Shown one piece after another: positions 21,862 through 64,000 of a stretch of 64,000 nt of DNA. The notes under the pieces were generated by a model, which was given only the letters and a program-made list of their open reading frames with translations, searched no databases and was not told the origin of the DNA. Both the position numbers and the translations under genes were made by a program. The stretch comes from Candidatus Latescibacterota bacterium. GTDB lineage: Bacteria > Latescibacterota > UBA2968 > GCA-2709665. Each line of letters starts with the position of its first letter. Positions within the stretch are counted from its first letter, which is position 1. Location of the stretch: positions 896,001 to 960,000 of the forward strand of contig OZ252100.1 of NCBI GenBank assembly GCA_965248435.1, in the 5' to 3' direction.

Positions 21862-24110
21862 TCATTTTGGCTCTCCTTTGAACGCCGCGCGGATCTCCAC
21901 CAGGTTGAAGTGCAGGAGCGCGTTGGAGTTCTTGAAGCGGTCGAGCACGCGGTAGATGCCCGAGTACTCCAGTCGTGGCCGGTCGTCGGTGACCAGCGGA
22001 GCGCTGTCGGTGTAGGCGCGCACCTTCGCCGGGTCGAGCACGAACGAGGTGCGCATCAGGTTTTCGTTCAGGGGAATCGCGCGCAGCGACTCGGGGCCTT
22101 CGCGGAGTCGGCGCACCGCGCGCTCGGGCTCGATGGGGCTCGGCGAGCCGATCGCCAAGCCGGTCATGTCTCCCGGCATGATGAACAGATGGGTTTCGGG
22201 GAACACGCTTTGTAGCGTCGCGAGGATCTGGCGGCTGTCGTCGGGTGAGACCAGGTGCAGCGGCAGCCACTGCACGAGGATGCCGTCGTCGGCGAGCCGG
22301 CCGCGCGCCAGCTCGTAGAACTCGCGTGAGTAGAGGTTCACGGCCCCGGCGAAGTGCGGCGGCATCGGCTCGAGCGTGATGATGTCGTAGACGTCGCGCG
22401 AACGGTGCAAGAACGTGCGGCCGTCCTCGAGCGTGACGTGCGGCAGGATGCGCAGGTTGTCAAGGGTGAAGTGCTCGGCGCAGGCCAGCACGTCGGGGTT
22501 GATCTCGGCGACATCGAGATGCAGCGGCCAGCTACCCAGCGCGCGCGCGGTCGAGCCGGTGCCGAAGCCGATGACGAGCCCACGCTTCGGGTCGGGGTGC
22601 AGCAACGCGGGGAGGTGCCCCATCATCGGCATGTAGTGCGTGCCGGGGCCATCGGCCGCGGTGACGAAGCCGTCGAGGAACAACGAGCGCCGGTTGGTCA
22701 CGATGTTGCGCACGACCGTCGTCGTCGTGCTCGCGCCCTCGCGGTAGTAGAGCACGCGGTAGAAGTGCTCTTTTCCGACGGTGTGCGGGGGGACCGACGT
22801 GCCTTCGCCGAGCTGCTTGCCGACGGCGGCGGGCCAGGCGAGCACCACCGCGGCCGCGAACACCCCGGCGAGCGCCCAGGCCGCGCGGGGTACCCGCGCG
22901 CCGCGACGGTCGCGCACCATCAGCCACAGCCCGCAGCCGGCTTGGACCAGGGCCAACGCGATGAGCGCACCGCGCACGCCGAGCGCGGGAAGCAGCCAGA
23001 AGCCGGTCGCGAGCGAACCTGCCACCGCGCCGAGGGTGTTTACGAGGTACGCGCCGCCAAGAGACGCTCCGGCGCGGCCCTTGGTCACGAAGCGTCCGGC
23101 GGCCATCGGGAACGCCATGCCCCACACCACGGCGGGCAGCCCAATTAGAACGATCGACAGCCCGATGTAAATCGTCAGCCGCACCCAGAAGCGCACGTCG
23201 TTGCCGCGCAGGAGCTCCACCAGCTCCGGCGTCGCGGCCACCAACGGCGCAAACGCGAGAGCGAGCGCCGCGCCCGCGGCGATGATGGCGCCGAGCAGCG
23301 CGGTGGACTTCCTACGGGACGGCGGCGCGACGGCCGCTCCGATCGCGAGCCCGCCGAGAAACGCCGCGAGGATGATGGTGAACGAGTAGGCGGTGCCCAA
23401 GAACCCCTGGAGCAGCAAGCGCGTGAAGAGGATCTCGTAGCCTAGCGTGACCAGGCCCGAGACGAACAGCGCGCAAGCGGCAGGCAGCGCGGGCCACGCG
23501 CGCGGCTGGGGCTCGGTGGCCGGGGGCGTACGGTCGAGCGCGATGGCGCAGACTCCCGCGACGACCTCCAGCGCCGCGGCGACGCAGGCGGCACCCCACA
23601 GACCGAGGTTCTCGATGAGCACGAAACCGGCGAGCGCCGCGCCCGCGAGCGCGCCAAACGTGTTCGCGGAGTAGAGCGGACCGAGGGCTTTGGCGGGCTT
23701 CTCGCCGACGCGGTCGACGTAGGCGAGCATCGCCGGCAGCGTCGCGCCCATCAGCACCGTAGGCACGACGAGCAGCGCCAAGGCGGCGAGCGCGACCAAC
23801 GAGTAGTGCGACGATGCGTGAAGCGACGGAAGGTGTGCGGCCAGCGCGGTCACGGCGAGCCCGGTGACGGCCGCGCCGATCTCCAACACGCCGTAGAGGC
23901 GCAACGGACCTCGGACCTTGTCACCGTACCGTCCGATCGCGATCGCGCCCAGCGCCAGCCCGAGCATGAACGTGGCGAGCACCATGGCCACGCCGCGCGC
24001 CGTGCCCCCGAGCACTAGCGTCATGTGCCGCGCCCAGATGACCTGGTAGATCAGCGACGCCCCGCCCGAGAGCAGCAGCAGCGCCTGCAACGCGCGAACG
24101 TGACGGGAAA
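21862..24110 (-). CDS. Membrane-fused spermidine synthase-like methyltransferase (start uncertain)
   Basis: LSGGASLIYQVIWAR, LYSANTFG, LVIGFGTGST, EDGR, NLYSREFY, VTDDRPRLEY; about 70% GC. Confidence 0.85.
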
Positions 24111-27995: not shown

Positions 27996-28801
27996 AAAGC
28001 AATAAAGTGCTTAGAATAATCGAAGCCAGAAAGAGTAGCCTCGGTGAGGGCGAACCCTACATCATGTATCCGCATGGCATATCAGCTTACGGGGACAGAA
28101 TGGTTGTCACGTCAACGATTCACCCCGATCTCGCCACCGGAGTCGGAAATGCGGTCACCGTTATCGACTTGAATACGTTTGCACCGATAGAAATAATTAC
28201 GATTGAAGATGCGCAACCGGTAGGTTTTCCCTCCTCTCCGGTTGAGGTGTTATTTCTGCGACCAAGTATCGTTGCGGACATTGAGCCGAGCGTGTTGGTT
28301 AATACTATGTTCGGGTTTGAAACCTGGAAGATACCCTATAACGAGTCTGATAAATCATTTGGAGATCCAGAAATTATCTATGCTGGCGTTGATCAAGGAA
28401 CAGGTGTACCACTCGAATTTTATGGCAATGAAACGGAATTGTTTGTCAGCCATGCAATTCCTGGCGTAGTTAAGAGATACCAACTATCGAGTCTTCCGAA
28501 TTTGGTTTCCTCTGGCCCCGATCTTGAATCAGGCCTGGGGGCACATCATATGATTTTCTATGCCACCAAATCAGACAGGCAGGTCATTGCGATACAAAAC
28601 AACCTGCTAAATCTGGGAAATGCGGCTGACAATGACCCGACTGATCTGGATTTCATTGCCAAGGTGAATGATCACACGATCACTGTTCATGACCTTAAAA
28701 CCAGTGAGAAGTTGGCGACAGTCAACTTCAAAGAGAGGTATGGCAAAGGAGTAGATAATGTTGAATCCCTCTTTGGCTCGGGATTCGTGCATCATCATTA
28801 G
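27975..28801 (+). CDS. 5'-truncated beta-propeller-like protein
   Basis: YPHGI, NAVTVIDL, GAHHM; lower GC; no credible start; abuts the uvrD truncation. Confidence 0.6.
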
Positions 28802-28878
28802 ACTGTCTGTCCAAGCGGAAGACTGTCCGTCCGCCAGGAATTCTTTGATTGTAAAATGATTCAGAGCGCACTAGTCAA

Positions 28879-28915
28879 AAGCCCATGTTTGAGCTCACCA
28901 CTCAAACATGGGCTT
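28879..28915. terminator. Strong intergenic hairpin
   Basis: AAGCCCATGTTTGAG-N7-CTCAAACATGGGCTT, perfect 15-bp stem. Confidence 0.7.
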
Positions 28916-28961
28916 CGAGTTTCGGTGACTTATTGAGTAGGGTATTGACGAACGCGTTGCC

Positions 28962-30071
28962 GTGAAGAAATCACTCTCAATAAGTGCAATAATCATCGCC
29001 GTTATGGTGGTGGGCGGTTATGTCTATATTGAAACACAATTCAATCGGCCCACGCCTATCACCAACTTCTCTGCGCCCTTTGTTTTTGGCCGGTTTCGCG
29101 TTCCAGAAGATAACCCATTAACCGATGAAGCAGTCGAACTGGGCAGGAGACTATTTTACGATGTCCGCCTGTCTGGGAATAATGAAGTTTCCTGCGCTAC
29201 CTGTCACGTGCAGCAGCTGGCGTTCACTGATGGTAGAAAGACGGCGGTAAGCGCTTCCGGAGAAGCGCTGGCGTTTAATAGCATGGGCCTGGCAAACCTG
29301 ATGTGGGGTCCGCGGCATTTCTTCTGGAACGGTCGCGTGACTTCATTGGAAGCGCAAGCTCTTGTCCCAATACAGGCTGACGAAATGGGTCAGGATCTAG
29401 CGGAGCTTGTTGATGAACTAAAGGCAGATGCTCAATATGTAGCACTATTCAAGAAAGCCTATGGGAGCATCACGGATGATCATATCGCCAAGGCGCTGGC
29501 CTCTTTTCAGCGCACACTGATCTCTTCAGATTCAAAATACGACAAATACTTGCGTGGAGAAGCCGCTCTGACCGTGCAGGAAAACCTGGGCAGGAAACTA
29601 TTCATGGCTCATCCTGATGTAAAGGCCAGTTTACGGGGTGCCAATTGTATTGATTGTCATAGTCAATTTCTGACCAGCGGTTTCAACACGCAGTATGACG
29701 GTTTTTCCAACAATGGCCTGGACAGTGAAGAGAACTTATTGACCGGACTGGAAGATGTTACTCAGAACCCGGCACATCGAGGCCTTTTCAAAGTCCCTAC
29801 TTTAAGAAATATTGCTCTAACGGCGCCCTACATGCACGACGGTAGATTCGCCACCCTGGAAGAGGTTCTGGATCACTATAACGAGGGCATAAAATTGAGC
29901 AGTACACTTAGTCCACTAATAGCGGAAGCCGACAATTTAATAAAAGGAGCGAATACACAGCCGAGTCTTAATCTAACCGAAAATGAAAAAGGCGCAGTTA
30001 TAGCCTTCCTGCACACGCTGACGGATCAGAAGTTTATCGCGGCTGAGAAGTTTTCAAACCCATTCGAATAG
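28962..30071 (+). CDS. Di-heme cytochrome c peroxidase (MbnH/MauG family)
   Basis: LGRRLFYD, CATCH, FFWNGR, CIDCH, FKVPTLRN, PYMHDG. Confidence 0.9.
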   Translation: MKKSLSISAIIIAVMVVGGYVYIETQFNRPTPITNFSAPFVFGRFRVPEDNPLTDEAVELGRRLFYDVRLSGNNEVSCATCHVQQLAFTDGRKTAVSASGEALAFNSMGLANLMWGPRHFFWNGRVTSLEAQALVPIQADEMGQDLAELVDELKADAQYVALFKKAYGSITDDHIAKALASFQRTLISSDSKYDKYLRGEAALTVQENLGRKLFMAHPDVKASLRGANCIDCHSQFLTSGFNTQYDGFSNNGLDSEENLLTGLEDVTQNPAHRGLFKVPTLRNIALTAPYMHDGRFATLEEVLDHYNEGIKLSSTLSPLIAEADNLIKGANTQPSLNLTENEKGAVIAFLHTLTDQKFIAAEKFSNPFE

Positions 30072-30075
30072 TCAT

Positions 30076-30816
30076 ATGGCAATAACCGTCCAAAGGAAGT
30101 ATTTACTAATAGCATCGATTATTTTGGCATCATTGCTGCTTACTGTTTCCTATTCCTTACTAACCACGCGTTCCACGGAAACGGTAAACCTGCATTTCGA
30201 AGCAGTTGTCGGCGGCGATCCAGTCGTATTCGACCAACTTCGGTATTCTAATCCAGGCGGCGAAGGTCAATTTAAGATACGAAGTTTCCTGTTTTATCTA
30301 AGCAATGTTACGTTAATCGGCGATTCGGAAAATTATATCGAAGCAGATAGCTATCATCTTGCGCGCTTCGACAATGGTAACAACGCCTTCACGATTGAAC
30401 TGAGTGACGTTCCCAGACAAAGATACAAAAGGATCGAATTCTCCATTGGAGTGGACGAAACGGCCAACAATTCGATCAAACCGATTGGAGATCTGGATCC
30501 GAATAGTCGTATGGCCTGGAGCTGGGATTTTGGTTATAAGTTCGTTCTCTTCGAAGGAGGACTCTATCTGAATGAAGCACTGCACCCCCTCGTCTACCAC
30601 GTTGGCTTTGATGAGAACTACAAATCTATGGCGTTCAATCTGGACCAAGCCCATAATGAGGGTCGGCTGAAATCGGCTTACTTCAAAGTAGATATCATGC
30701 GGCTCTTCACGGGGGCTACCACAATCGATATGGCCGAATTATCGACGGTGAAGTTTGATACACTAGATGCCCAAGTAATAGCCAACAATTACGCAAAAAT
30801 GATCGCCTTGAAATAA
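30076..30816 (+). CDS. MbnP family copper-binding protein
   Basis: FYLSNV, FSIGVD, MAWSWDFGYKF (WxW motif), YHVG; adjacent to the MbnH-like gene. Confidence 0.8.
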   Translation: MAITVQRKYLLIASIILASLLLTVSYSLLTTRSTETVNLHFEAVVGGDPVVFDQLRYSNPGGEGQFKIRSFLFYLSNVTLIGDSENYIEADSYHLARFDNGNNAFTIELSDVPRQRYKRIEFSIGVDETANNSIKPIGDLDPNSRMAWSWDFGYKFVLFEGGLYLNEALHPLVYHVGFDENYKSMAFNLDQAHNEGRLKSAYFKVDIMRLFTGATTIDMAELSTVKFDTLDAQVIANNYAKMIALK

Positions 30817-31024
30817 TGGTGTTTGGCTTTTTCCTCTGAACGGTAGCCCATCTCGTACAGCCCAGATAACGGCCTCAAACCCAATTTACTTGCTCGACCC
30901 CGCATTCATCGGCAGATGAATTTTCATCGGGCGCTCGGTCGTCAGGCAGAATTCTGCCGTTTTGGCACAGGTGAATCGTCGCCTGTCATCTAAGGTTGAC
31001 GTGCCGAACTAAGGAGGAAAAATT

Positions 31025-31597
31025 ATGTCCAATTGGTTGAAGGTTGTGGCCGCAGCGGTTCTAGGCGCGCTCGGATCATTCGCTCTTTTGCAATACATGC
31101 ACGGCAGAGAGATTCAGAAGGTGCAAGATGGTGCTGTAGCCATTACTCGTGGGCCAGGCGAGGGGGCCTGGGTTCGGTGGGTGCCTGGGCATAAAATTAT
31201 AGCCAAGGCTGATGCAAAAGAGACGGCCAGCGCCTACTCGCTGTTGGAGACGCTGATGCCAGGTGAAGGACCTCCACAGCACATCCACAAAAATGAAGAC
31301 GAAGCATTTTATCTTTTGGAAGGTGAGGTGGGCGTCAAGAGAGGGGAAGAGACTATGCACGCGTCTCCCGGAACCTACGTTATGATTCCAAAAGGGACAA
31401 TTCATACAGTATGGAGCACTGGGTCGACCCCGGTTAAGATTCTGGCGATTTTGTCACCGCCGGGATTCGAGGAATACTTCCTTGAGACTGGGATGGAAGA
31501 CAGAGAACCAGATAAGGCCGCCTACATTGAGAAGGCAATGACCGTTTCTGAGAAATACAACCTAGAAATCGTGGGGCCCCCACTTTCTGCCCAGTAG
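31025..31597 (+). CDS. Cupin domain protein with N-terminal anchor
   Basis: AAGGAGG RBS; GPPQHIHKNEDEAFYLLEG; PKGTIH; PPGFEEYF. Confidence 0.85.
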   Translation: MSNWLKVVAAAVLGALGSFALLQYMHGREIQKVQDGAVAITRGPGEGAWVRWVPGHKIIAKADAKETASAYSLLETLMPGEGPPQHIHKNEDEAFYLLEGEVGVKRGEETMHASPGTYVMIPKGTIHTVWSTGSTPVKILAILSPPGFEEYFLETGMEDREPDKAAYIEKAMTVSEKYNLEIVGPPLSAQ

Positions 31598-31924
31598 CCC
31601 CTCTTCGCGAATGCCTTTCTATAGAGACACTTACTTAGTCTGAACTCAAGTACCTATTCTCCATCAGATCGTCACTTCGACCGCTCAGCTTGATGTCGCT
31701 GCATAGCCTCCTGCGACCTCTACATTCCTCTGTGCGAGCAACACCGCCGATTCTCGAAACTGAGATTCCACATCGCTAGGCAGCTCCAGCGCATGAAGAT
31801 TTCTCGCCACAACCCAATATTCCACGCGCGTGGAATATTGGTCTAAATGAAAAGGCCTCCGCTATTTTGACATAAGCCCTTGTTTATTATGCTGATGACC
31901 TTCTGACAGAGCCGTGCTCCGCAC

Positions 31925-33814
31925 TCAAATTTCGCCCGCTTTCAACACTGCTCTGGCGAACCCCGAGCGGCTGACAGTGCTACCTCCTGATGGGCCAGCG
32001 ATGTCTGGATCCCCTCTTCCTGCGAGCCAGGCCGCTCGATCTTTCTCCGTAACCAGCTCGTCCGGCGCGAACTCCAGGCTGTCCTCCCTGCCCCCATAGC
32101 CGCGCGTCATCACCAGCCGTTGAACCGCCGGGAAGTCGGCGCTCCCTATCGGCACATCGATCAGCCAGCAGAGCGGCACGCCTTCGCCCACCACCTCCCT
32201 TTGAAATGCCCGCAGCAGCGTTTCGTCTTCGCGGATCGCTCCGGGCGTCCTGCCCTGCTCGATCGCGAACGCGGCGACGAGTCCCGCCGCCTCGCCGATG
32301 TTCCACTCGACCGGGTGCAGCCGGAAGCAGCCATTCGTGATGTGCGTCGTGCCGATGTTCTTGTTGGCCGCGATCAGGTTCTGGACACGCACGGGGATCA
32401 ATGCGCCCAGGGGGATCTGGAACGGCTTCGTCCGCGTACTCGTGCCGACTTCATCATCGCTGACCTGATGGATGTCGATCGGATACCAGCCGACACCGAC
32501 AGAGTCGTCGAAATGAGCGGCGCGCGGCCCCGGCTGGTGGGCGACGGCGACCTCCTGCTCGATGACCGTCTTGACCGCTTTGATCCTCCGGCATTCGCGG
32601 ATGTAGGGAAACTTGCTCAGTCCGTCGCTGCTGCCCATGAGGTCGGGTCGCAGCAAGAGATTCGCGAATCCCGGAGCGCCGTCCGGATTCGGCGCGCCGG
32701 TCTGCAGCCAGGTGACGAACCCCAGGCTCACCCGCTTTGCGCCCTGAAGCGCTGATGCCAGCGCCTCCGGCGATTGGTCCACGAGCGGCACGTCTCGATA
32801 GTCGTTGCCCGGCCAGTTGAACATCGTCAGGTCGTGTGTGTAATGACCGGGAAACTGCGTCGCCTCGACGAGCCTGCGGTATTCCCAGAGCGGGCCTTTC
32901 GTGTCCGGCGTGGCTTCAAAGACCTGGTAATCCAGCCACCCCGTCGTCTCGCCGTAGATCTCGCCGCCGTGCACGTGGATGCGCAGACCGTAGGGCTGGC
33001 GGTCGCGGTAATGCTCGTATCGCGTCGGCTTGGAAATGCGATGGTCTTCACCCACGGGCCTGCGTTCCAGAGCGAAGATGTAGGTGCAGCTCTGCACGCA
33101 GTGCGGCTTCGCTTCGTCCGGCTGTGCGTGCGGCTCGGTGGTCTGCGACACCGACTCCGCGCCCACCACATATTCCGTGCCCGTCAGCGGGAGCAGATCC
33201 CCCAGCTCCGTCGCGTCCAGGACGTACTCAAACGCGAATCGCACGGCGTCGCCGGTGTCGAGGTTGATCGCTCTGATGCTCGTGACGCGGTCCCCGTCCG
33301 TCTCAGCTTCGGTCGCCTTCGTGCGCAGAAAAACGCGCAGCCGCCCCGCCTCGACGTGCGGCGAAAGCAGATCGCCGATCACGCCGACCGCGACCCGCGG
33401 CTCGAACGCCAGGCGGCTGACCCAGCAGCGGCCCGGATTCAGGGGCTCCTGCGGCTCGTCCGCCAGCTTTCGATAATGGTCTCGGATCGCTTCGCAGAGC
33501 GCATAGTAGGACCGCGTGCCCCCGAACGCCTCGATATGTTCGTGCTCGTCGAGCGCCGCAACGCCCTGGCTGGCCATCTGCCCGCCCAGCCAATCGGTCT
33601 CCTCCAGCAGGCAGACGCGATGTCCGCGCCGCGCTGCCGCCCACCCGGCAGCGACACCGCCCATCCCGCCGCCGACGACGAGGATGTCGCACGACTCGTC
33701 GGAACAGGGCGCGTCGGGGTCGACCACCACGATCGCGCTTGACGGATCGCCCTCCGCGGGGACGCTCATGACGTCAATGACCGTCTCCAACTTCCTATTC
33801 ATTGGTGGCACCAA
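31925..33814 (-). CDS. FAD-dependent oxidoreductase
   Basis: VVGGGMGGVAA, EETDWLGGQ, DATELGD, PYIRECRR, FQIPLGALIP, RLHPVEWNIGE. Confidence 0.88.
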   Translation of the reverse strand: MVPPMNRKLETVIDVMSVPAEGDPSSAIVVVDPDAPCSDESCDILVVGGGMGGVAAGWAAARRGHRVCLLEETDWLGGQMASQGVAALDEHEHIEAFGGTRSYYALCEAIRDHYRKLADEPQEPLNPGRCWVSRLAFEPRVAVGVIGDLLSPHVEAGRLRVFLRTKATEAETDGDRVTSIRAINLDTGDAVRFAFEYVLDATELGDLLPLTGTEYVVGAESVSQTTEPHAQPDEAKPHCVQSCTYIFALERRPVGEDHRISKPTRYEHYRDRQPYGLRIHVHGGEIYGETTGWLDYQVFEATPDTKGPLWEYRRLVEATQFPGHYTHDLTMFNWPGNDYRDVPLVDQSPEALASALQGAKRVSLGFVTWLQTGAPNPDGAPGFANLLLRPDLMGSSDGLSKFPYIRECRRIKAVKTVIEQEVAVAHQPGPRAAHFDDSVGVGWYPIDIHQVSDDEVGTSTRTKPFQIPLGALIPVRVQNLIAANKNIGTTHITNGCFRLHPVEWNIGEAAGLVAAFAIEQGRTPGAIREDETLLRAFQREVVGEGVPLCWLIDVPIGSADFPAVQRLVMTRGYGGREDSLEFAPDELVTEKDRAAWLAGRGDPDIAGPSGGSTVSRSGFARAVLKAGEI

Positions 33815-46448: not shown

Positions 46449-47401
46449 TTAAACCGAGCCTTCATCTGATTGTACAAAGTTCTCAAGTGCAGTGGCTTTC
46501 AGGTTGAATCGTCGAAAGTAACCTTCCTCGTATTTGGTGCCATCGTAATCTCTGATTGTGGAGCCCCCACTCTCAGATTCAGCACCTACGTGGATCATAT
46601 AGTGGTTTATCGCTAGATTGCGCCCGAAACGGTCTCTCAACTTGCTCGCCCATGCCTCAATTTGCTCCGTCTTGTGAGGTAACACCTCTTCGTATGCACC
46701 GACAAGCTCTTCGAATGCCCTTGACTCTCGAAATCCTCTGGTTAGCTCGACAGGCCTCCGAAGCAAGCACGACTCGACAGTTTTCAGGATTGTTGGGATG
46801 CCTTCGTTCTCGATTTGAATCAGATACAAGAAAGCCTGCCCGTCCTTCTCAAGCAAGGCTGGAATCTTGTTCAATAGTTGCTCAGCAGGACCGTTCCCAT
46901 CCACCCCAGCGTCGGAGTGCAGGGCTCCAACGACACCTTGGGGTGTGGCGACGAAGGGTGGGTTGGCGAAGATCGCATCAAACCTGCCAGGAGACTGAAA
47001 GCTGCTGAAATCTGAGACGGCTGTACAAACCCTGTTCGAAGGAAGGTTGTTTCTCTTAACATTCTTCAGAAGGAACTCCATTGCTCTTGGGTTGATGTCT
47101 ATGAAGGTGACCCTCTCGGCACCCAGCGATAAGGCGACCATCCCGAGTGGGCCCGACCCCGAAAACGGCTCCAGGATGTTTTGCCTCGGGCCAGCTCCGG
47201 ATGACGAGCCATATACCGCATCTGGATCCCACAGGCTTGTCCCAAAGCAATGACTCTGTTGCGGTCAGGTCGATCCAGCTTGTCCGTCTTGAAAATGAGG
47301 TTGCCAAATCTATAGACCCAAGAGTCTCCCTTCTCCCCAATGAACCTGAGTTTGGACACTTCATCCTGGCTGGTCAATGAGTTTTCATCCCTTTTTGACA
47401 A
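46449..47401 (-). pseudogene. Class I SAM methyltransferase with frameshift near 47180
   Basis: N-terminal frame ..LARGK shifts to ILEPFSGSGP..DINPRA..NPPF; one A appears missing in an A4 run. Confidence 0.7.
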
Positions 47402-47470
47402 GTTTTCAGGCCCGATTTGCGTCTATCTTTATACAGCGCCAGACCCAAGGATTCATGAGAGTGATCTCAG

Positions 47471-48376
47471 ATGAAATTAGATGAAATTCTCGTTCAACGT
47501 GCTGCTAAGGGCTGCAGCCAAAGTTTCGACACTCTGGTGAAGAAGTATCAGACTGGGATTCTTTCACTCTGCTACGAGACCGTGGGCTCCTTTGCTGAAG
47601 CACAAGATTTGACCCAAGAAACTTTTGTGCGGGCATTTGAGCGGATTGATCAACTTAGGGAATCGAAAAGATTTGTTTGGTGGCTAAGGCGAATTGCTCT
47701 CAATCTGTGCTACTCTGCTACACGAAGCCAAGTCAGAACTGAGTCAGTTGAGCTTTTTTCTCATGACAGTCCTCCGGTTTCACTCAGATCTCAGGCCCGC
47801 CAACTAGAAGCACTGGAGGACGTCGAGAAGCGCAGGACCGTGATTGATCTCTTAGACATTCTTTCCGATAAGACTCGTATCACAGCAAGACTGTTCTACA
47901 TAGACGGGCTTTCCTACCAAGAAATCAGTGATCTTCTCAACATCACGGTTACGACCGTGGAGAGTCGCCTTCACAAGGCCCGACAGAAACTCAAGATTGA
48001 ATTTAGGGACGGATATTCTGATTCAAAGCGAAGAGGTGTTCTCCAGAGACTCACTGATATTGCAGGAGGTGACAGGAAAATGGACGAAGTCCGAATCGAA
48101 ATAGGCTGTGATCTTATTGCACACGCGAAGGACGAAAGCCCGGAGGGATTCTTGGCTCAAATTCGAGAATTGCGCAATGATCTGGCAAAAGCTCACAGAC
48201 TGGGGCTTCCGCCGGTTCGGATAATTGACAAGACCGGGTTACGACAAAGAGCCTTTGACATCCTAATTCGAGAGGTTCGGTGCAAGTCAGGAGAACTGAG
48301 TACGGAAGATTCTCACATAAAGGTCATTGAAGAATTGAGGGAGTCGATTCTGGAACAGCGAAATCTGTTTGACTAA
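47471..48376 (+). CDS. ECF sigma factor fused to FlhA cytoplasmic (FHIPEP)-like domain
   Basis: Sigma2 AQDLTQETF..WLRRIALN; sigma4 LSYQEIS..TVESRLHKAR; C-terminus VRIEIGCDLI..IRELRNDLA..LGLPPVRIIDKTGL..FDILIREV..GEL. Confidence 0.85.
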   Translation: MKLDEILVQRAAKGCSQSFDTLVKKYQTGILSLCYETVGSFAEAQDLTQETFVRAFERIDQLRESKRFVWWLRRIALNLCYSATRSQVRTESVELFSHDSPPVSLRSQARQLEALEDVEKRRTVIDLLDILSDKTRITARLFYIDGLSYQEISDLLNITVTTVESRLHKARQKLKIEFRDGYSDSKRRGVLQRLTDIAGGDRKMDEVRIEIGCDLIAHAKDESPEGFLAQIRELRNDLAKAHRLGLPPVRIIDKTGLRQRAFDILIREVRCKSGELSTEDSHIKVIEELRESILEQRNLFD

Positions 48377-48382
48377 TTAGCT

Positions 48383-50218
48383 CTAGACTTGCTGTTTTGT
48401 TTGATCTATCAGCCCGTCTAGACGGTTCACCAACTCGGCAAGGACGGCATATGTCTTGTCTATGGGTTCGGGGGTGGAGATGTCTATCCCACACAGTTTG
48501 AAAAGGTCCATGGTGTAGAGAGAGGAACCAGCTTTGAGGAAGTTGAGGTAATTTTCCCTGGCATCGTCCGAGCCCGACAGAACCCCTTCGGCCAGGGCAT
48601 GGGCGGCGCTGATGCCGACAGCATACTGGAAGGTATAGTAAGGCATGTAAAGATGGGCGAACTGGGCCCAGGTGATTTGAGTGCGATCAGGATCGTCGAT
48701 CATGGTGGCTCCATAACCTTCGGAAAAGAGGTCCTTCATAAGGCCGTTCAAGATGTCGGCAGTGAGGGGTTTGTTCTGTTCGGCTCGACAGTAGACTTCC
48801 CACTCGAAGCGGGCAAGCGTGGGCATGATAAAGAAGTAGCGGTGAAAATTGTCCATGGCTTCGTCGATGAGTGCCATCTGAAATGTGGGATCGTCAGCCT
48901 TTTCTTCCATCAGGTAGGCCCGGGTGACGGCTTGATTGAAATTAGATGCTGTTTCAGTGACCATGGCAATGGGAAACCCTTTATAGACGTCGGGCTGCGT
49001 CTGGTCAGCGAGGTACGAGTGCATCGCATGTCCAAGTTCGTGGGCCAGAACGCTCATATCCATCAGGGTATCGTTGTAGGAAGTAAACGCAAACGCGTAA
49101 CCATCAATCGAACCCGGGGCAGCTGCGCCCTGGCGCTTACCCTCGTTGGGGGCGTAGTCAACCCACCGGTCTTCGAGGCAGCCACGAAGGAGAATGGAAA
49201 CGTATTCATCACCCAAAGGGGCCATGCCCTTGCTGATCCAGTCTATGGCCTCTTCGTAAGGGACTTCCGTCTGATCTTCAACAATCGGTGCCCAGATGTC
49301 GTAAGGGTGAAGCGTTTCCACTCCCAAGGCCCGGCGCTTGACCTCCCAGTATCGGTGCCAGGTTGATAGGTTGGCTTTGTAGGAGTCGATCAGATTGTGA
49401 AAGACTTCGACGGGGACATTGCCGGGGAAGAGGCGCGACTCAAGGACAGAGTTGTAACCACGTACCCGAATGTTGAATGCCTGTTGTTTTACGAAGGTGG
49501 CGTAGTTGTTCGCCAAAGTATTTTTGAAGCTTAGGTAACCGTCGCTGAAATTTTCCCAGGCTGTGCGCCGCTGTTCACGGTCGGGACTCTGGATACCGGT
49601 GGGCGGAATGGTAGTCTGTCCCACGTGGTACAATCTACCACTGCTATCGATGGCCTCGGCGAATTTCAGGTCGGTGTTGGTGAGTTCGACCGCGGTCTGT
49701 GAAACACCCGAAAAAGGGTCGGCCAGCAGCCCTAGGATTTCTTCGACTTCTGCAGAGCGAAGGTGGGCTTTCTGGCGGAGCAGGTTGTCGAAGAAGTGCT
49801 TGTAAATGGCCAGACGCGGCTCTCGTTTGCACCACTGCAAGAGCGAGTCACCTATCTCAAGCATTTCGGGTTCGGCAAAGGCGGAGTTGGCAACAAACCT
49901 GGAGAACACACCAATAGCCAAGCCTTGCTTAGCTTTTGCAGTGATATCGTTGCTGTCCACGGAAGAAGACATGCTCAAGTAGATCCCTACCCGATTTAGC
50001 CGCCTGACCAAGGCGAAATAGGCGTCGAACCAGTCTGCCAGGACAGTGGGGCCGTCGCCTAGTTTACCGGCAAAGTCCGACAATGCAGGCAGGGCCTCTT
50101 CGACGGCATCCAGCTCCGTCTGCCACGTGTTCCAGGACTCAAACAGCGCCTCGGCGTTCCAGGTGCTTTTTTCTGGGACGTCTTTGCGTTTGAGGACTTG
50201 ACCCGTTTCCGACATCAA
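48383..50218 (-). CDS. pepF: Oligoendopeptidase F (M3B)
   Basis: KRKDVPEKSTWN, NEGKRQGA, LAHELGHAMH, ETAS, YTFQYA, FLKAGSS. Confidence 0.92.
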   Translation of the reverse strand: MMSETGQVLKRKDVPEKSTWNAEALFESWNTWQTELDAVEEALPALSDFAGKLGDGPTVLADWFDAYFALVRRLNRVGIYLSMSSSVDSNDITAKAKQGLAIGVFSRFVANSAFAEPEMLEIGDSLLQWCKREPRLAIYKHFFDNLLRQKAHLRSAEVEEILGLLADPFSGVSQTAVELTNTDLKFAEAIDSSGRLYHVGQTTIPPTGIQSPDREQRRTAWENFSDGYLSFKNTLANNYATFVKQQAFNIRVRGYNSVLESRLFPGNVPVEVFHNLIDSYKANLSTWHRYWEVKRRALGVETLHPYDIWAPIVEDQTEVPYEEAIDWISKGMAPLGDEYVSILLRGCLEDRWVDYAPNEGKRQGAAAPGSIDGYAFAFTSYNDTLMDMSVLAHELGHAMHSYLADQTQPDVYKGFPIAMVTETASNFNQAVTRAYLMEEKADDPTFQMALIDEAMDNFHRYFFIMPTLARFEWEVYCRAEQNKPLTADILNGLMKDLFSEGYGATMIDDPDRTQITWAQFAHLYMPYYTFQYAVGISAAHALAEGVLSGSDDARENYLNFLKAGSSLYTMDLFKLCGIDISTPEPIDKTYAVLAELVNRLDGLIDQTKQQV

Positions 50219-50969: not shown

Positions 50970-52121
50970 ATGGAAGAGCTAGATGCATTAGTAGTCCGGG
51001 CTCAAGCAGGCGATCTGGCCGCTTTTGACACAATTGTTCTGCGATTCCAGGACATGGCAGTGGCCTATGCCTGCTCGCAACTGAATGATTTCCAATTAGC
51101 CCAAGATGTCGCTCAGGAAGCGTTTATTTGTGCCTTCCTAAATCTAGAAAAGGTGCGAGACCCTTCCGCATTTCCAGGATGGTTTCGCCGAGCGATCTTG
51201 ACTCAGTGTGACCGACTTACTCGGAGAAAGCAACTTTCAACTGAACAGCTAGATGAGACCGGTGATGTGGCCTCCGACCAAAAACGCCCCGACGAACTTC
51301 TGGATGAACGGAATCTAAAAGAAGAGGTGCTGACCGCGATCGAAGCGCTTCCAGAGTCTGAGCGTGCTGTTGTTTTGCTTTTCTACATCGCCGAGCACTC
51401 TCAGAAGGAAATTGCCTCTTTCCTGGAAATTGCCGTAACGAAAGTCAACAATCGGCTCCACACTTCCAGGAAGCGGCTGAGAAAGGAGTTGAGGAAGATG
51501 GAAAGCAAGAACTTACGACCTTCGCGAGACCAGGAATTTAGCGAAAAAGTGCGGAAGCACTTGAAGGGCCTAGAGAAACTTCACAGCAAGTTGGCGAGTT
51601 TGATGGGAGCGCTCATTTCGGTTGGACTGGGAACTAGCACGCAAGTAAAAGTCGCATCAGTGAATCAAGAAACATATGTCGATTTCATCGAATCTTTGCC
51701 TAATCCCAGTTGCGCTTTGACATTCAGGCTAGCACCGTCAGAAGGTAGAGTAACATTCAATATCCCAATGTCACTTGCTTGGGGGCTTCTGGACCATCTG
51801 AATCATCCAGAGGCGGCCCAAAGATTTCACAGAGAACAGAAAGTAGTCTGGGAAGAGATACAGCCTCTGGTTCCTTTTTTTAAACAAGCGGTGAAAAATC
51901 TTAGTCCCACCTGGGAAATGGAGCTCGATGTGGAAGCTTCAAAGATTGTAGTAGACACAAATCCTTTGTTGTTATTGGCCCAACCGGAGATCCGGAGTGC
52001 CGACCCGATCGAAACGGTAGTCCACCTAAGGCTTGACGTGAAGACGGAGGGAATCTCAGTCATGCTTAGCTTGTGTTATCCACCAGACATTCTGAGGTCT
52101 CTACTCCCATATCTCAACTAG
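50970..52121 (+). CDS. ECF sigma factor fused to FliM middle (CheC-like) domain
   Basis: AQDVAQEAF..AFPGWFRR; SQKEIA..VNNRLHTSRKRL; C-terminus LEKLH..VKVASVNQETYVDFIESLPNP..DTNP..LCYP. Confidence 0.88.
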   Translation: MEELDALVVRAQAGDLAAFDTIVLRFQDMAVAYACSQLNDFQLAQDVAQEAFICAFLNLEKVRDPSAFPGWFRRAILTQCDRLTRRKQLSTEQLDETGDVASDQKRPDELLDERNLKEEVLTAIEALPESERAVVLLFYIAEHSQKEIASFLEIAVTKVNNRLHTSRKRLRKELRKMESKNLRPSRDQEFSEKVRKHLKGLEKLHSKLASLMGALISVGLGTSTQVKVASVNQETYVDFIESLPNPSCALTFRLAPSEGRVTFNIPMSLAWGLLDHLNHPEAAQRFHREQKVVWEEIQPLVPFFKQAVKNLSPTWEMELDVEASKIVVDTNPLLLLAQPEIRSADPIETVVHLRLDVKTEGISVMLSLCYPPDILRSLLPYLN

Positions 52122-55661: not shown

Positions 55662-56716
55662 GCTGGATTCAATGACTAAGTGCAACACTTGGACTTGAAG
55701 ACTTCAGCTGGTGTTTTGAAGTTAAGACATTTTCTTGGTCGGTTGTTGATCCGGTTCTGAATTTTCTTTAACTCGTGTTTGCTGACCTTTGAGAAGTCTG
55801 TCTTCTTGGGGAGGTATCTGCGGACCAGACCGATAGCGTTTTCCACAGCGCCTCGCTCCCAGCTGTGGAACGGTTTGCAGAAATAGGATTTGGTGCCAAG
55901 CACCTCGTTGACCCGTTGATGTTGGCCGTTTTCGGATCCGTTGTCATATGTGATGCTCTTCCTCATGTGGGGAGGATGTCGCCCAAGGCGTCGATTAATC
56001 GCTTCGGCGACCTCCGAGGGTCCGTTCTTTGCCAGCTTAGCCAGGTGTAGGTATCTCGACGATCGCTCAAGACAAGCGCCAACGGCCTGTTTGCTCTCAC
56101 GAGAGATGATGGTGTCGGATTCCCAGTGGCCAGGTTGTTTCCGTTTTTCGATGTAACGGGGACGTCGATCGATCGAAATACGGCCTGGAATGTGGCTTTC
56201 CCGGTGTTTTCGGGTATGCCACCGCGGCTTTCGTTTTTTGTGAGCTCGGGATAAGCAAGCAACCAGATCCCGCTGCTTGTGCACCTTTGGATCGTAGATA
56301 TACTGGTAGATGGCTTCGTGGCTGATACCCGCGCTCGGACGCTCCTCGGGAAGCCTCCCAGCGATCAACTCGGGAGACCATCCTTGCTTGAGTTTGGTCT
56401 CGACATATCGCCGGATAACCGGATTCTTCAGCCGTTTCCGCTTGCCGGCCTCCCGCTTACGTTTCTCAGCCCTTCTGTGAGCCTGGAGGCCCGAGTAACT
56501 CTCAGCTATCGGGGACGGATTACGTTTCAACTCTCTTGAAATCGTGCTGGCGCTCCGGTCAAGGGCCTTGGCAATATCTCTAAGGCTTGCACCAGTGGCT
56601 CGACAAAGCGCAATCTGCTCGCGTTCGTCTATCGTAAGATGCTTGTAATTGTTTCCCATACACTTAGGATAGGACAGTTGCTACCCTAAGTGTTGCACTT
56701 CCTTATTGAACTCGGG
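55662..56716 (-). mobile_element. Complete IS30-family element (transposase 55676..56659)
   Basis: STISRELKRN, WSPE, GHWESDT, TYDNGSE, WERGAVEN; imperfect IRs with TTCAAT-N4-AAGTGCAACAC; TCA target duplication. Confidence 0.93.
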
Positions 56717-60157: not shown

Positions 60158-61315
60158 ATGGAAGAGCTGAAAGCACTGGTCAAACTGGCGCAAGCTGGTG
60201 ATCTGAAGGCGTATGACAAGATTGTCGATCGCTTCCAGGACATGGCTATGGGATATGCCTACTCACTACTGGGAGACTTTCATCTGGCTGAGGATGCATC
60301 TCAAGACGCCTTTGTTGAAGCGTATCTGTACCTGGCTAAGTTACAAGATCCTTCAGCCTTTCCGGGTTGGTTTCGACGCATTGTGTTCACACGCTGTAAC
60401 CGGATAACTCGTAAGAAGCGGATTGCCATGGTGGATCTGGAAGTCGCTAGCGAGACTTTGTCAGATGAAAAGGGACCTGAGCAGCTTCTGGAAGAGCAAG
60501 TACTGAAAGACCAGGTCCTACAGATTATCCGCGCTTTGCCAGAGGCTCAACGTACTGTTGTGATGCTCTTCTACATCTCCGAACTCTCTCAAAAAGAGAT
60601 TTCTGCTTTTCTGGAGATACCCATAACTACGGTCAACAACCGGCTCAACGTCTCCAGGAAACGACTGAAAGAGGAGATACTGAATATGGCAACCGAAGAC
60701 TTACAAGCACAGAATCCCTCCAGGGATCGAATATTCGCGGAAAAGGTACAGAATCACCTGCAAGTCATTAGGAGCATTCACAATGAATATGCTTCGCGCC
60801 TAACAGATCTTTTCTCTCGTTCGCTAGGTAGAAAAGTGGATCTTACAGCATTAGCCGTGGAGCAGTCCACCTACGATGCGTTCATCCAATCACTGCCAAA
60901 GCCATGTTGCGCATACACCTTCTCGTTCAACATACCGACTCAGAAGGATGGCGGATGGGTCATCCTTGATTTGTCGAGACCCTTTGGTTGCGCGCTTGCA
61001 GGCAGAACTACCGAATCGGGGAATACACCTACGGAATTAAGCATTAATGAACGCAATAGGCTTGGCCCGATTATCACCAATTTGGTGGCCAACTTTGGCA
61101 TAATTTGGAAATTTCCACCCGGTGTCCTATCAGACGCCTATATACATGAGGACCCAGAAGAACTACCGTCGTATCCTCACGCAGATCGGGAAGAACCTAT
61201 AATCCAGGCAAAACTGATGATCGAGGCCGATGGGCTTTCGGGTATTGCCGGACTATGTTATCCAGCCAACACAATTGAAAAGGTGATTTTGCCCTATCTT
61301 GATCAAAGAGTATAG
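60158..61315 (+). CDS. ECF sigma factor fused to FliM middle domain (paralog of 50970)
   Basis: Same sigma core; IRSIHNEYASRL..VEQSTYDAFIQSLPKP..ELSINE..LCYPANTIE. Confidence 0.88.
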   Translation: MEELKALVKLAQAGDLKAYDKIVDRFQDMAMGYAYSLLGDFHLAEDASQDAFVEAYLYLAKLQDPSAFPGWFRRIVFTRCNRITRKKRIAMVDLEVASETLSDEKGPEQLLEEQVLKDQVLQIIRALPEAQRTVVMLFYISELSQKEISAFLEIPITTVNNRLNVSRKRLKEEILNMATEDLQAQNPSRDRIFAEKVQNHLQVIRSIHNEYASRLTDLFSRSLGRKVDLTALAVEQSTYDAFIQSLPKPCCAYTFSFNIPTQKDGGWVILDLSRPFGCALAGRTTESGNTPTELSINERNRLGPIITNLVANFGIIWKFPPGVLSDAYIHEDPEELPSYPHADREEPIIQAKLMIEADGLSGIAGLCYPANTIEKVILPYLDQRV

Positions 61316-63276: not shown

Positions 63277-63999
63277 TCAGTCAACCAAAGAAGGCCGAAT
63301 GGTGCCAGCCCTCTGTAGATCGTGGATAGTCTTCAAAATCGTCGTGCGCGATGTATCAATCTCAGCCTCTGATGGTGACCTCTCTTCAATCATGTGTTGC
63401 ATGATTCCTTGAACACGCTTTGAAATGTTCCGCATGATCTTGTCTTCAACCCGGCGTGCGGCGTTGTCTTTCCTCACCAGGGCAATCGCGAGATCCTCGG
63501 TAAAGGTCTTCCTGAGCGTGGCCACCATCTCCTCATCTGTCAGCTTTGACCAGTCCGCGAAGGATTCTACATCCACTCTATCTGATTTCTCATCCATAGC
63601 GATCAACTCCTGTCTTAGTCTCTGCCGGCCACGGTGCAGGCGGACTTTCACGGCGTTTTTCGAGATAGCGAGTGATTCACTCACAGAATCCACACGCATC
63701 CCAAGAAGGTAGTAGAGGACGACAGCCTCCCTTTCTCCTTCCGGCAGGCAGTCCAGCACATCAAGAATCTGGCGCCTGCGCTCCTCCCGTTCGTATACCT
63801 CATCTGGAGAAAGGTCTAGTGCCGGCGTCCCGTCAGGGTCAATGCCATTCTCCTCGACCTTGGGCCGTCGCAGTTGCATTTTGCAGAGATTAATGGCTAT
63901 TGAACAGACCCAGTTCCTAAACTGGTCAGCGTCCCTGAGGCTCGGCAGGTCGGTAAAGGCCGCAATGAACGCCTCCTGTGCGACATCATCGGCCAGGCC
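63277..63999 (-). CDS. ECF sigma factor fused to FliG C-terminal-like domain (5' end outside window)
   Basis: Open frame to the edge: LADDVAQEAF..QFRNWVCSIAINLC; LPEGEREAV..VKVRLHRGR; C-terminus FADWSKLTDEEM..DLAIAL..KIMRNISKR..ILKTIHDLQRAGTI. Confidence 0.85.
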   Translation of the reverse strand, partial: GLADDVAQEAFIAAFTDLPSLRDADQFRNWVCSIAINLCKMQLRRPKVEENGIDPDGTPALDLSPDEVYEREERRRQILDVLDCLPEGEREAVVLYYLLGMRVDSVSESLAISKNAVKVRLHRGRQRLRQELIAMDEKSDRVDVESFADWSKLTDEEMVATLRKTFTEDLAIALVRKDNAARRVEDKIMRNISKRVQGIMQHMIEERSPSEAEIDTSRTTILKTIHDLQRAGTIRPSLVD

Positions 64000-64000
64000 A

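Follow-up and report, generated by a model that had tools for sequence, protein, structure and literature searches.

An extracytoplasmic function sigma factor with a tail derived from domain D1 of the flagellar export protein FlhA

Control of an extracytoplasmic function (ECF) sigma factor by a domain fused to its C terminus is established for ECF41 (with a SnoaL-like tail), ECF42 (with a tetratricopeptide repeat, or TPR, tail), and ECF238 (CorE), according to PMC8999054. The same paper reports that the extensions of ECF41 and ECF42 act on their own sigma factor, and control of ECF42 by protein-protein contact through the tail has been proposed there. Here we describe a sigma factor of similar layout that is encoded at positions 47471..48376 (+ strand) of a 64,000-nucleotide stretch of contig OZ252100.1 (the window). 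Like ECF41, ECF42, and ECF238, it has a sigma2-sigma4 core with one fused C-terminal domain, it has no anti-sigma gene nearby, and it is monocistronic. Unlike them, it has no SnoaL, TPR, or Cys-rich domain (Pfam, E <= 1). Instead, its tail is a domain of the flagellar export protein FlhA, as known here from sequence.

Another precedent comes from the Planctomycetes, in which closely related sigma2-sigma4 units carry unrelated C-terminal extensions (Pinto and da Fonseca 2020, PMC7671368). The main text of that study explains these extensions by duplication of the sigma unit and its fortuitous insertion into or before other genes, and it leaves a regulatory role open. The locus in the window is similar in that closely related cores carry unrelated tails that look like parts of ordinary genes, the tree of the sigma cores conflicts with that of the tails, and the context is not conserved. 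It is unlike the planctomycete cases described there in that the fusion belongs to an old family, the domain is precisely bounded, and the free-standing homologues are under selection. The planctomycete ECFs are also described as recent within-genome duplicates with poorly conserved tails. Here, the tail is conserved across 12 fusion clusters, and a tree of sigma cores shows no close paralogue of the fusion's sigma core in the genome. (The closest named relatives of the host's FlhA are proteins from Latescibacterota metagenome-assembled genomes [MAGs], at 74-77% identity, which gives no reason to take the host for a planctomycete. PF07596 [DUF1559] has no match in the host genome, but it had none in the control genomes either, so its absence says nothing about the taxon.)

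Targeted searches of the literature gave no description of an ECF-FHIPEP or ECF-FliM fusion. FHIPEP and FliM are absent from the main text of PMC7671368 and from the portion of one supplementary file that was available, and the Pfam heat-map data of that study may list them. The main text of the ECF reclassification (Casas-Pastor 2021) contains neither “FliM” nor “FliG,” and its single mention of “flagell” concerns FliA. Overall, ECF cores with swapped C-terminal extensions are already published, and what distinguishes this case is the nature of the D1 tail, its free-standing family, and the presence of four sigma factors with flagellar domains at one locus. A described link between a sigma factor and the flagellum is the FlgM/sigma28 checkpoint, in which FlgM is a separate, exported anti-sigma factor. 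Unlike in that system, the sensing part here would be a gate-derived domain that is fused to the sigma factor itself.

A sigma factor core with a complete D1 domain as its tail

The open reading frame (ORF) begins with ATG and encodes 301 amino acids followed by a stop codon, and its N terminus matches the invariant M1 of its family. (All of the features of this gene are on the + strand.) Sigma region 2 (residues 22-89, 47534..47737) matches Pfam PF04542 (Sigma70_r2) at 51.3 bits, with a cut-off of 24, and its structural matches in Foldseek are SigW, AlgU, and sigmaE. Sigma region 4 (residues 124-174, 47840..47992) matches PF08281 (Sigma70_r4_2) at 48.2 bits, with a cut-off of 25.7, and the two regions are joined by a linker of 34 residues. 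The protein also matches NCBIfam TIGR02937 (sigma70-ECF) at 97.1 bits, with a cut-off of 42.9. Among the 17 Pfam families listed at E <= 1, there was no Sigma70_r1 or Sigma70_r3. Judged by its domains, with regions 2 and 4 but without 1.1 or 3, the product is a member of the ECF group (group 4) of the sigma-70 family.

Region 4 is followed by a linker (residues 175-203, 47993..48079) with one predicted helix at residues 185-198; the AlphaFold 2 (AF2) model has a predicted local distance difference test score (pLDDT) of under 50 at residues 181-203. The rest of the protein is the domain that we call mini-D1 (residues 204-301, 48080..48373), which corresponds to the thioredoxin-like domain D1 of FlhA without the insertion of domain D2, and which opens with a near-invariant methionine, M204. 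The Pfam FHIPEP profile aligns to residues 196-282 over profile positions 322-408 of 657 (E = 5.4e-9, 35.5 bits, cut-off 29.1). We scanned the entire 5.67-Mb genome in six frames with this profile and obtained just two matches, the true flhA (C1:3526404-3528347, which encodes a normal protein of 687 amino acids) and the ORF in the window. Because only these two loci score genome-wide, and above the curated cut-off, the match of the tail is not a chance resemblance. An earlier note on this DNA had called the gene an ECF-FlhA(C) fusion and had proposed a search with FHIPEP as a check. Both the sigma regions and the FHIPEP tail bear out that call, and the C-terminal peptide that the note quoted is present as residues 204-276 of the translation.

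The predicted structure agrees with the profile match. When the tail was folded alone (AF2, with a 13-sequence alignment of its family), the model had a pLDDT of 85.6 and a predicted TM-score (pTM) of 0.78. In a Foldseek search with this model, ranks 1-14 were all FlhA_C, followed by the SctV proteins CdsV, MxiA, YscV, and InvA; the earlier note had taken a best structural match other than FlhA/SctV as grounds to reject its reading, and no such match came first. VIA-align, which is independent of Foldseek, was run against 48,161 chains and gave FlhA_C of B. subtilis, Salmonella, Vibrio, and Helicobacter as its top four (Z = 15.7, 15.6, 14.8, and 14.2, with 107 residues aligned). These were followed by five SctV entries (Z = 13.4-7.6) and then by unrelated thioredoxin-like folds (Z <= 6.5). 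A model of the full-length protein (from a 7-sequence alignment) had a pLDDT of 74.1 and matched two kinds of structures in the PDB: the first 180 residues matched the ECF sigma structures SigW, AlgU, and sigmaE, and FlhA_C structures matched 71-86 residues at ~2-3 Å.

How much of FlhA does the tail contain? Residues 2-108 of the tail model map onto residues 351-504 of Salmonella FlhA_C (3a5i), with Z = 15.6, 107 residues aligned, and a root-mean-square deviation of 3.6 Å. As about 107 residues of the model cover a span of 154 residues in FlhA, D2 is skipped. The tail spans the end of the FlhA linker and both halves of D1, and the protein stops where D1 stops. (In Salmonella FlhA, D1 comprises residues 362-434 plus 484-503.) In this light, the earlier note was right to assign the tail to D1, but its description as the first cytoplasmic subdomain falls short: the tail is not just the first part of FlhA_C but the whole of D1, with both halves present and D2 excised. 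On the evidence of the model, the tail is a complete and precisely trimmed D1 that lacks D2, rather than the arbitrary remainder of a broken flhA. The linker and the D1-D4 architecture of FlhA_C are named in a preprint (bioRxiv 10.64898/2026.05.20.726703).

Compared to D1 of FlhA (Salmonella 3a5i and B. subtilis 3mix), the tail is alike in fold and sequence over the whole domain, and it retains both Glu and Gly from the EIG segment (this Gly is the first residue of the GYXLI motif), R388 and R391, P403, and D409. Unlike D1 of FlhA, the mini-D1 evolves much faster, and it is either fused to a sigma factor or free. When a profile of the tail family was compared to the PDB, FlhA chains scored E = 2e-14 to 5e-9, and they matched only in residues 361-434, while SctV (LcrD) reached only 6.6e-4. 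By these scores, mini-D1 descends from the flagellar and not the injectisome branch. The tail and the FlhA of the host share just 27% identity (over 77 residues), so the tail is no recent fragment of that flhA gene.

The tail also retains some of the residues by which FlhA subunits contact each other. An alignment from HMMER, which is free of gaps, places positions 2-71 of the tail profile on residues 361-430 of a 692-residue Salmonella-type FlhA chain. This numbering agrees with the numbering in bioRxiv 10.64898/2026.05.20.726703, which gives GYXLI at 368-372, the basic residues R388/R391/K392/K393, P402, and V404. According to that preprint, the basic cluster on D1 (R388/R391/K392/K393) receives E351 and D356 of the adjacent subunit's linker, and the intermolecular salt bridge between R391 and E351 is needed for the ring to be in its filament-type state. 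In the window protein, the HMMER alignment identifies R232-E-L-R235 (48164..48175) as the equivalents of R388 and R391. R235, which corresponds to R391, is invariant in two alignments of 13 sequences each (A2 and A4), and R232 is kept as well. The contacts that the preprint describes support the earlier note's statement that this domain contributes to ring contacts. The equivalent of GYXLI (Salmonella 368-372) is G212-C-D-L-I216 (48104..48118), in which the G and L are kept and Y is replaced by C. Overall, the linker-receiving surface appears to be partly kept, which is consistent with linker binding but is no proof of it. A prediction of the complex between the tail and FlhA_C of the host (residues 325-686) scored 0.00 in two runs, with a mark of 0.32, and gives no evidence either way.

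A family of fused and free-standing mini-D1 proteins

We searched 1.84 billion representative proteins (50%-identity clusters) with the tail alone and found 22 proteins at E <= 0.001, all of 314 amino acids or less. Twelve of these are proteins of 292-314 amino acids with the same sigma-plus-D1 layout, four are fragments of sigma-D1 fusions that are cut at the N terminus, and five are proteins of just 97-113 amino acids that start at the D1-opening methionine. The sequence of P0136 (144 amino acids) continues into a D2-like part, and this protein is probably a piece of a true FlhA. Full-length fusions share 24-43% identity with the protein in the window, and the degree of conservation is similar in the tail and in the sigma part.

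In a tree of the D1 segment, a long branch (length 1.19, with a Shimodaira-Hasegawa-like approximate likelihood ratio test [SH-aLRT] support of 97) splits 19 true FlhA sequences from 29 mini-D1 sequences, and fused and free mini-D1 are intermixed; this tree has 74 columns only and weak inner forks, and some of the short database proteins may be truncated gene calls. The signature of the family is a domain of about 97 amino acids that opens with M-[DE]-x-[IV]-[RQ]-x-E-[IV]-G, and the tail in the window has this signature. In alignment A4, the invariant positions (in tail numbering) are E17, G19, I38, R42, P54, D60, L64, and L96. By these comparisons, mini-D1 is an old, distinct, and conserved family. 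As far as our searches show, a mini-D1 module with a free-standing family related to FlhA D1 had not been described. The earlier note had missed this family and its free form, as well as the neighbouring sigma factors with FliM and FliG_C tails, the swap to a Rho tail, and the published swapped extensions.

We also compared the tail profile to 168 genomes from the same phylum, and 14 of them have a match to the whole profile. Two of the 14 have fusions: the genome of the window (an open frame of 303 amino acids) and G161 (319 amino acids). In the others, namely eight genomes of genus g24 and four of genus g25, mini-D1 is a separate ORF of 97-116 amino acids, and these free-standing genes sit between genes for a PIG-L deacetylase and a PhyH dioxygenase. 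A tblastn search with 10 sigma parts (E < 0.3) found no remnant of a sigma factor upstream of them. (An apparent upstream extension of P0129 relative to L047 was rejected as spurious, as tblastn with the sigma parts found nothing.) Within three groups of free-standing genes, the ratio of nonsynonymous to synonymous substitution rates (dN/dS, by the Nei-Gojobori method) was 0.03-0.17 in all 22 pairs computed. These low ratios imply that the free-standing mini-D1 is under purifying selection and is a functional small protein in its own right.

Another 20 genomes belong to the same family as that of the window, and all of them lack mini-D1; two of these 20 have FlhA only. A search of genome contigs with the whole protein gave 37 loci, all of which are ordinary ECF genes that match only the sigma part; most of them are from Bacteroidota and Puniceicoccales. 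In a search of metagenome contigs with alignment A6, a scan with hidden Markov models (HMMs) found a mini-D1 in 0 of the 80 loci that were kept.

The boundary between the linker and the tail may preserve a translation start. We located the D1-opening start residue by motif search in 16 of 18 fusion proteins, and it is Met in 15 of them and Val in one; this Met is kept in at least 90% of 13 aligned full-length fusions. In the window, AGGAGG lies within the codons of the linker (48064..48069, + strand), 10 nt before the conserved internal ATG, and is a candidate internal ribosome-binding site. The fusion in G161 has a Shine-Dalgarno-like AAGGAG 8 nt before the same Met, and one free-standing gene has this motif 9 nt before its start. 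Also, the residues five to six before the start of D1 are pairs with purine-rich codons (EG, KE, KG, or GG) in 16 of 16 proteins. (DNA was compared for two fusion genes, from the window and G161, and the other fusions were compared as proteins.) The internal Met and the Shine-Dalgarno-like motif fit with the capture of an entire small gene along with its ribosome-binding site. The fusion gene may also still give rise to free mini-D1, which we view as a lead from two fusion DNAs and not as a result.

If a small gene was captured, what was it joined to? An HMM for the sigma core identified 19 sigma-like ORFs in the genome, and one of these is the FliA/WhiG gene beside flhA. (It is an ordinary sigma-28 gene at C1:3523535-3524341, on the - strand, ~2 kb from flhA, and it matches TIGR02479 at 281.7 bits.) Other extended ECFs carry ankyrin repeats, as read from their sequences. 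In a tree of 54 sigma cores, the group of cores with D1 tails (support 85/97) contains nested cores with Rho-RNA-binding and Rho plus Clp_N tails (support 93/91 to 99/90). Cores with FliM tails group with cores that have ankyrin and PheRS tails (100/97), and the core with a FliG_C tail is separate. Since related cores in this tree bear different tails, the tails must have been swapped, and the capture of flagellar domains took place on at least three separate occasions. In the protein database, related cores are fused to Rho_RNA_bind, Clp_N, ABC_tran, the central domain of DnaN, the PheRS core, BFN, and FliN. (The proteins with these extended cores are P0009-P0013, P0015, P0017, P0020, P0037, and P0080; P0080 has both BFN and FliN.)

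These results could be taken to mean that the fusion is a by-product: a sigma2-sigma4 unit was duplicated, the copy was inserted upstream of a small mini-D1 gene, its reading frame ran on into that gene, and the tail is dispensable. This would be the “fortuitous insertion” that is described for Planctomycetes in the main text of PMC7671368. It accounts for the incongruence between the sigma tree and the tails (with the Rho type nested among the D1 type), for the diversity of domains on related cores (DnaN, PheRS, ABC ATPase, BFN, FliN, ankyrin, and others), and for the lack of a conserved genomic context. Also, capture of a whole gene predicts that the free gene's start Met and Shine-Dalgarno-like motif would still be visible in the fusion, as they are. 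However, the fusion is old and intact, with 12 full-length clusters in which conservation of the tail is similar to that of the sigma part, and the tail still folds confidently as D1. At such divergence, a neutral tail would have decayed or shortened, and we consider it unlikely that the tail is dispensable.

A possible connection to the flagellum

Full-length FlhA was found in 12 of the 14 genomes with mini-D1 and in 48 of the 154 genomes without it. G113 (a MAG that is 83% complete) has mini-D1 and FliP but no FlhA. G161 (a MAG that is 92% complete) has several FliM and FliG genes. Genus g25 is represented by 31 genomes, of which four have both FlhA and mini-D1 and 27 have neither; many of the 27 are single-contig genomes. 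Similarly, a complete sister genome from the window's genus (G040) has no FlhA, mini-D1, FliM, or FliG_C. DNA synteny between the window and G040 is limited to three short matches of 66-79% identity, and the two are too diverged to distinguish insertion from deletion. Related genomes are not independent, and the pattern in g25 could reflect a single event. Nevertheless, because the mini-D1 locus is unlinked to the flagellar genes, their joint presence or absence is suggestive.

For the g25 genomes without mini-D1, we examined the site that the free-standing gene occupies in its relatives. In 13 of the 27 genomes (by DNA match), the PIG-L and PhyH genes are 26-133 bp apart, which leaves no room for the gene. 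Another 10 of the 27 have other content in a gap of 0.47-5.7 kb, and four of the 27 have partial matches. It seems that small genes can insert at the spot between PIG-L and PhyH. (In G125, the gap at positions 2436-3079 of L066, on the - strand, holds two unrelated small ORFs and no mini-D1; they encode 144 amino acids, with a DTGFNG stretch, and 91 amino acids.)

We think it plausible, although somewhat short of probable, that the protein in the window is a flagellum-coupled one-component sigma factor, in which the D1 tail binds a component of the flagellum's type III export machinery and controls the activity of the sigma factor. The basis for this proposal is the architecture of the sigma factor, the D1 fold of the tail, the conservation of the family, purifying selection on its free form, the Arg that in FlhA binds the linker, the co-occurrence with flagellar genes, the three nearby ECF sigma factors with flagellar domains, and the lack of an anti-sigma gene. 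The mini-D1 tail would be a protein-contact switch, as proposed for ECF42. Its likeliest partner would be the C-terminal, acidic portion of the FlhA linker (in the ring, this portion docks on the basic cluster of the neighbour's D1), or perhaps another ligand of D1. Whether that partner is free or occupied would then determine the activity of the sigma factor, which would in this way reflect the gate's state of assembly or its conformation. What the tail binds, whether control works by sequestration or by activation, and which genes are in the regulon are inferred. The earlier note's idea that the module could join or sense the export-gate ring is likewise plausible as a hypothesis.

Few types of ECF tails have been studied, and all of these sense small molecules or unknown partners. 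A recognizable and trimmed contact domain from the export gate gives a concrete hypothesis for the partner. If the tail does bind the FlhA linker, this would be a new wiring of transcription to flagellar assembly, and it would be direct evidence that the “random” extensions in this sigma clade are functional sensors and not accidents. If it does not bind, the locus would still be a clean example of how a sigma extension originates by gene capture.

Several observations weigh against a coupling to the flagellum. First, G161 keeps an intact fusion, and we found neither FlhA nor FliP there (although, as this MAG is 92% complete, this is a weak point). Second, the fusion gene is outside of the flagellar locus: flhA, fliP, and fliA are 2.6 Mb away. 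Third, the co-occurrence could be trivial, as such fusions draw on flagellar genes for their material. Fourth, only part of the contact surface is kept, as the positions of K392 and K393 are N236 and D237 (so two of the four positions of the basic cluster are not basic), and the Tyr of GYXLI is not kept in the tail. Fifth, the tail cannot be an ordinary subunit of the ring because it lacks D3, which FlhA_C needs for building the ring. More broadly, the protein has no FHIPEP membrane core (residues 1-180 are the sigma domains) and no D2, D3, or D4, so unlike FlhA it would form neither a nonameric ring nor the chaperone pocket between D1 and D2. Sixth, in the same sigma clade D1 is replaced by Rho RNA-binding or Clp_N domains, which fits with tails that are interchangeable and not specific to the flagellum. 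Finally, the full-length model (pTM of 0.35) is not confident about the arrangement of the domains and tells us nothing about contacts in cis.

Some of these observations are expected if the tail is functional but was exapted, so that it controls the sigma factor in cis (as the SnoaL-like domain of ECF41 does) or binds a non-flagellar partner, with no present link to the flagellum. The fusion in G161 without detected FlhA or FliP fits with exaptation, as does the distance of the tail from FlhA (27% identity to the host's protein and, in the D1 tree, the branch of length 1.19 with SH-aLRT 97). Furthermore, the free copies are flanked by PIG-L and PhyH and not by flagellar genes, and in the account of PMC8999054 the extensions of ECF41 and ECF42 act on their own sigma. 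Yet the genomes that carry mini-D1 almost all have flagellar genes, with a both-or-neither split in g25 and in the window's genus. The linker-binding Arg is invariant, and three neighbouring sigma factors have flagellar domains as well. We regard exaptation as rather doubtful, though it deserves to be taken seriously.

Genomic context and other sigma factors with flagellar tails

The fusion gene stands alone, with a divergent methyltransferase gene on one side and a convergent pepF-like (oligopeptidase F) gene on the other. At the two fusion loci with DNA (the window and G161), there is no anti-sigma gene or conserved neighbour, and the neighbours in G161 are different. This is as expected for ECFs that are regulated by their extensions, given the precedents of ECF41 and ECF42 in the pertinent sections of PMC8999054. 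A consensus scan of 47100-48500, which includes the upstream intergenic region (47142..47470, + strand), gave 0 matches to sigma70-type promoters and 0 to terminators. By eye, the upstream regions of the two fusion genes share only “TTTTCAG.CC,” which we did not count as evidence.

Three other ECF sigma factors with flagellar tails lie within 17 kb of the D1 fusion, for four in one locus. The first is a protein of 383 amino acids (50970..52121, + strand) whose tail is the FliM middle domain (Pfam FliM, 57.6 bits, residues 194-380); a search with this tail turned up three more proteins with this architecture (55-86% identity). The second (60158..61315, + strand, 385 amino acids) has a FliM-like tail (Pfam FliM, 31.3 bits), and its core groups with that of the first. 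The third (63277..64000, - strand, 281 amino acids) has a FliG_C tail (40.1 bits, residues 187-275), and its first 41 codons are beyond the window, up to C1:960122.

A broader proposal would be that the sigma factors of this lineage include a set that engages the basal body via mimics of its subunits. FlhA D1 would connect to the export gate, FliM and FliG_C would connect to the C-ring, and the sigma factors would be held or released according to the state of assembly or switching. In the case of the D1 fusion, the FlhA linker would be bound by the tail while it is free, in the hook-type gate, and docking of the linker on the neighbouring D1, at the switch from hook to filament, would dislodge the tail. 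This would be a checkpoint parallel to FlgM/sigma28 that is built from a piece of the gate, and mini-D1 that is translated separately, from the conserved internal start, could compete. More broadly still, the cores with Rho, DnaN, ClpN, PheRS, and FliN tails would be a class of sigma factors that read the states of machines through copies of their subunits. We view the proposal of a basal-body set as improbable.

The same list of captured domains, all of which are parts of conserved cellular machines, is the only point in favour of an integrated decoy. In this scenario, the copies of host-machine domains (FlhA, FliM, FliG, Rho, DnaN, ClpN, and PheRS) would be hit by a phage protein or toxin whose target is the real machine, and this would turn on a defence regulon. 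However, there are no defence genes beside the four loci in the window (no PADLOC scan was run), and a decoy explains the flagellar co-occurrence and the free-standing form no better than does a sigma factor that is coupled to the flagellum. A decoy seems very unlikely.

We made several other observations about these genes and their surroundings. Both ECF-FliM genes are monocistronic and lie on the + strand among minus-strand genes, and their 5' regions share ~50 nt, including the palindrome AGAAGGCCTTCT and TAAGGATG.GAGATGGAAGAGCT. Between them is a gene for an IS30-like transposase (55676-56659, - strand), with HTH_38 and a weak match to rve. There is a second copy of the FliG_C-tailed ECF at C1:5324598-5325200, which encodes 200 amino acids and lacks sigma region 2; by eye, the two copies differ by few residues, and their branch in the sigma-core tree is 0.073.

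Flagellar switch domains are multiplied more generally in these genomes. The genome of the window (G000) has five matches to FliM and eight to FliG_C, and FliG_C has 12 matches in G041 and 15 in G161. The FliM and FliG_C matches in G000 and its relatives G041, G042, and G161 include open frames of 510-752 amino acids, some with several FliG_C repeats. Two copies of fliG with identical scores are 1.5 kb apart (C1:2546558 and C1:2548049).

The composition of the window is uneven. G+C is 0.56-0.65 in much of the first 40 kb and ~0.50-0.55 from 42 kb on, and because of this fall the latter stretch may be an island. Within the first part, two segments are outliers: 22001-24000 has G+C of 0.707 and an AT skew of +0.19, and 28001-32000 has G+C of 0.47-0.49.

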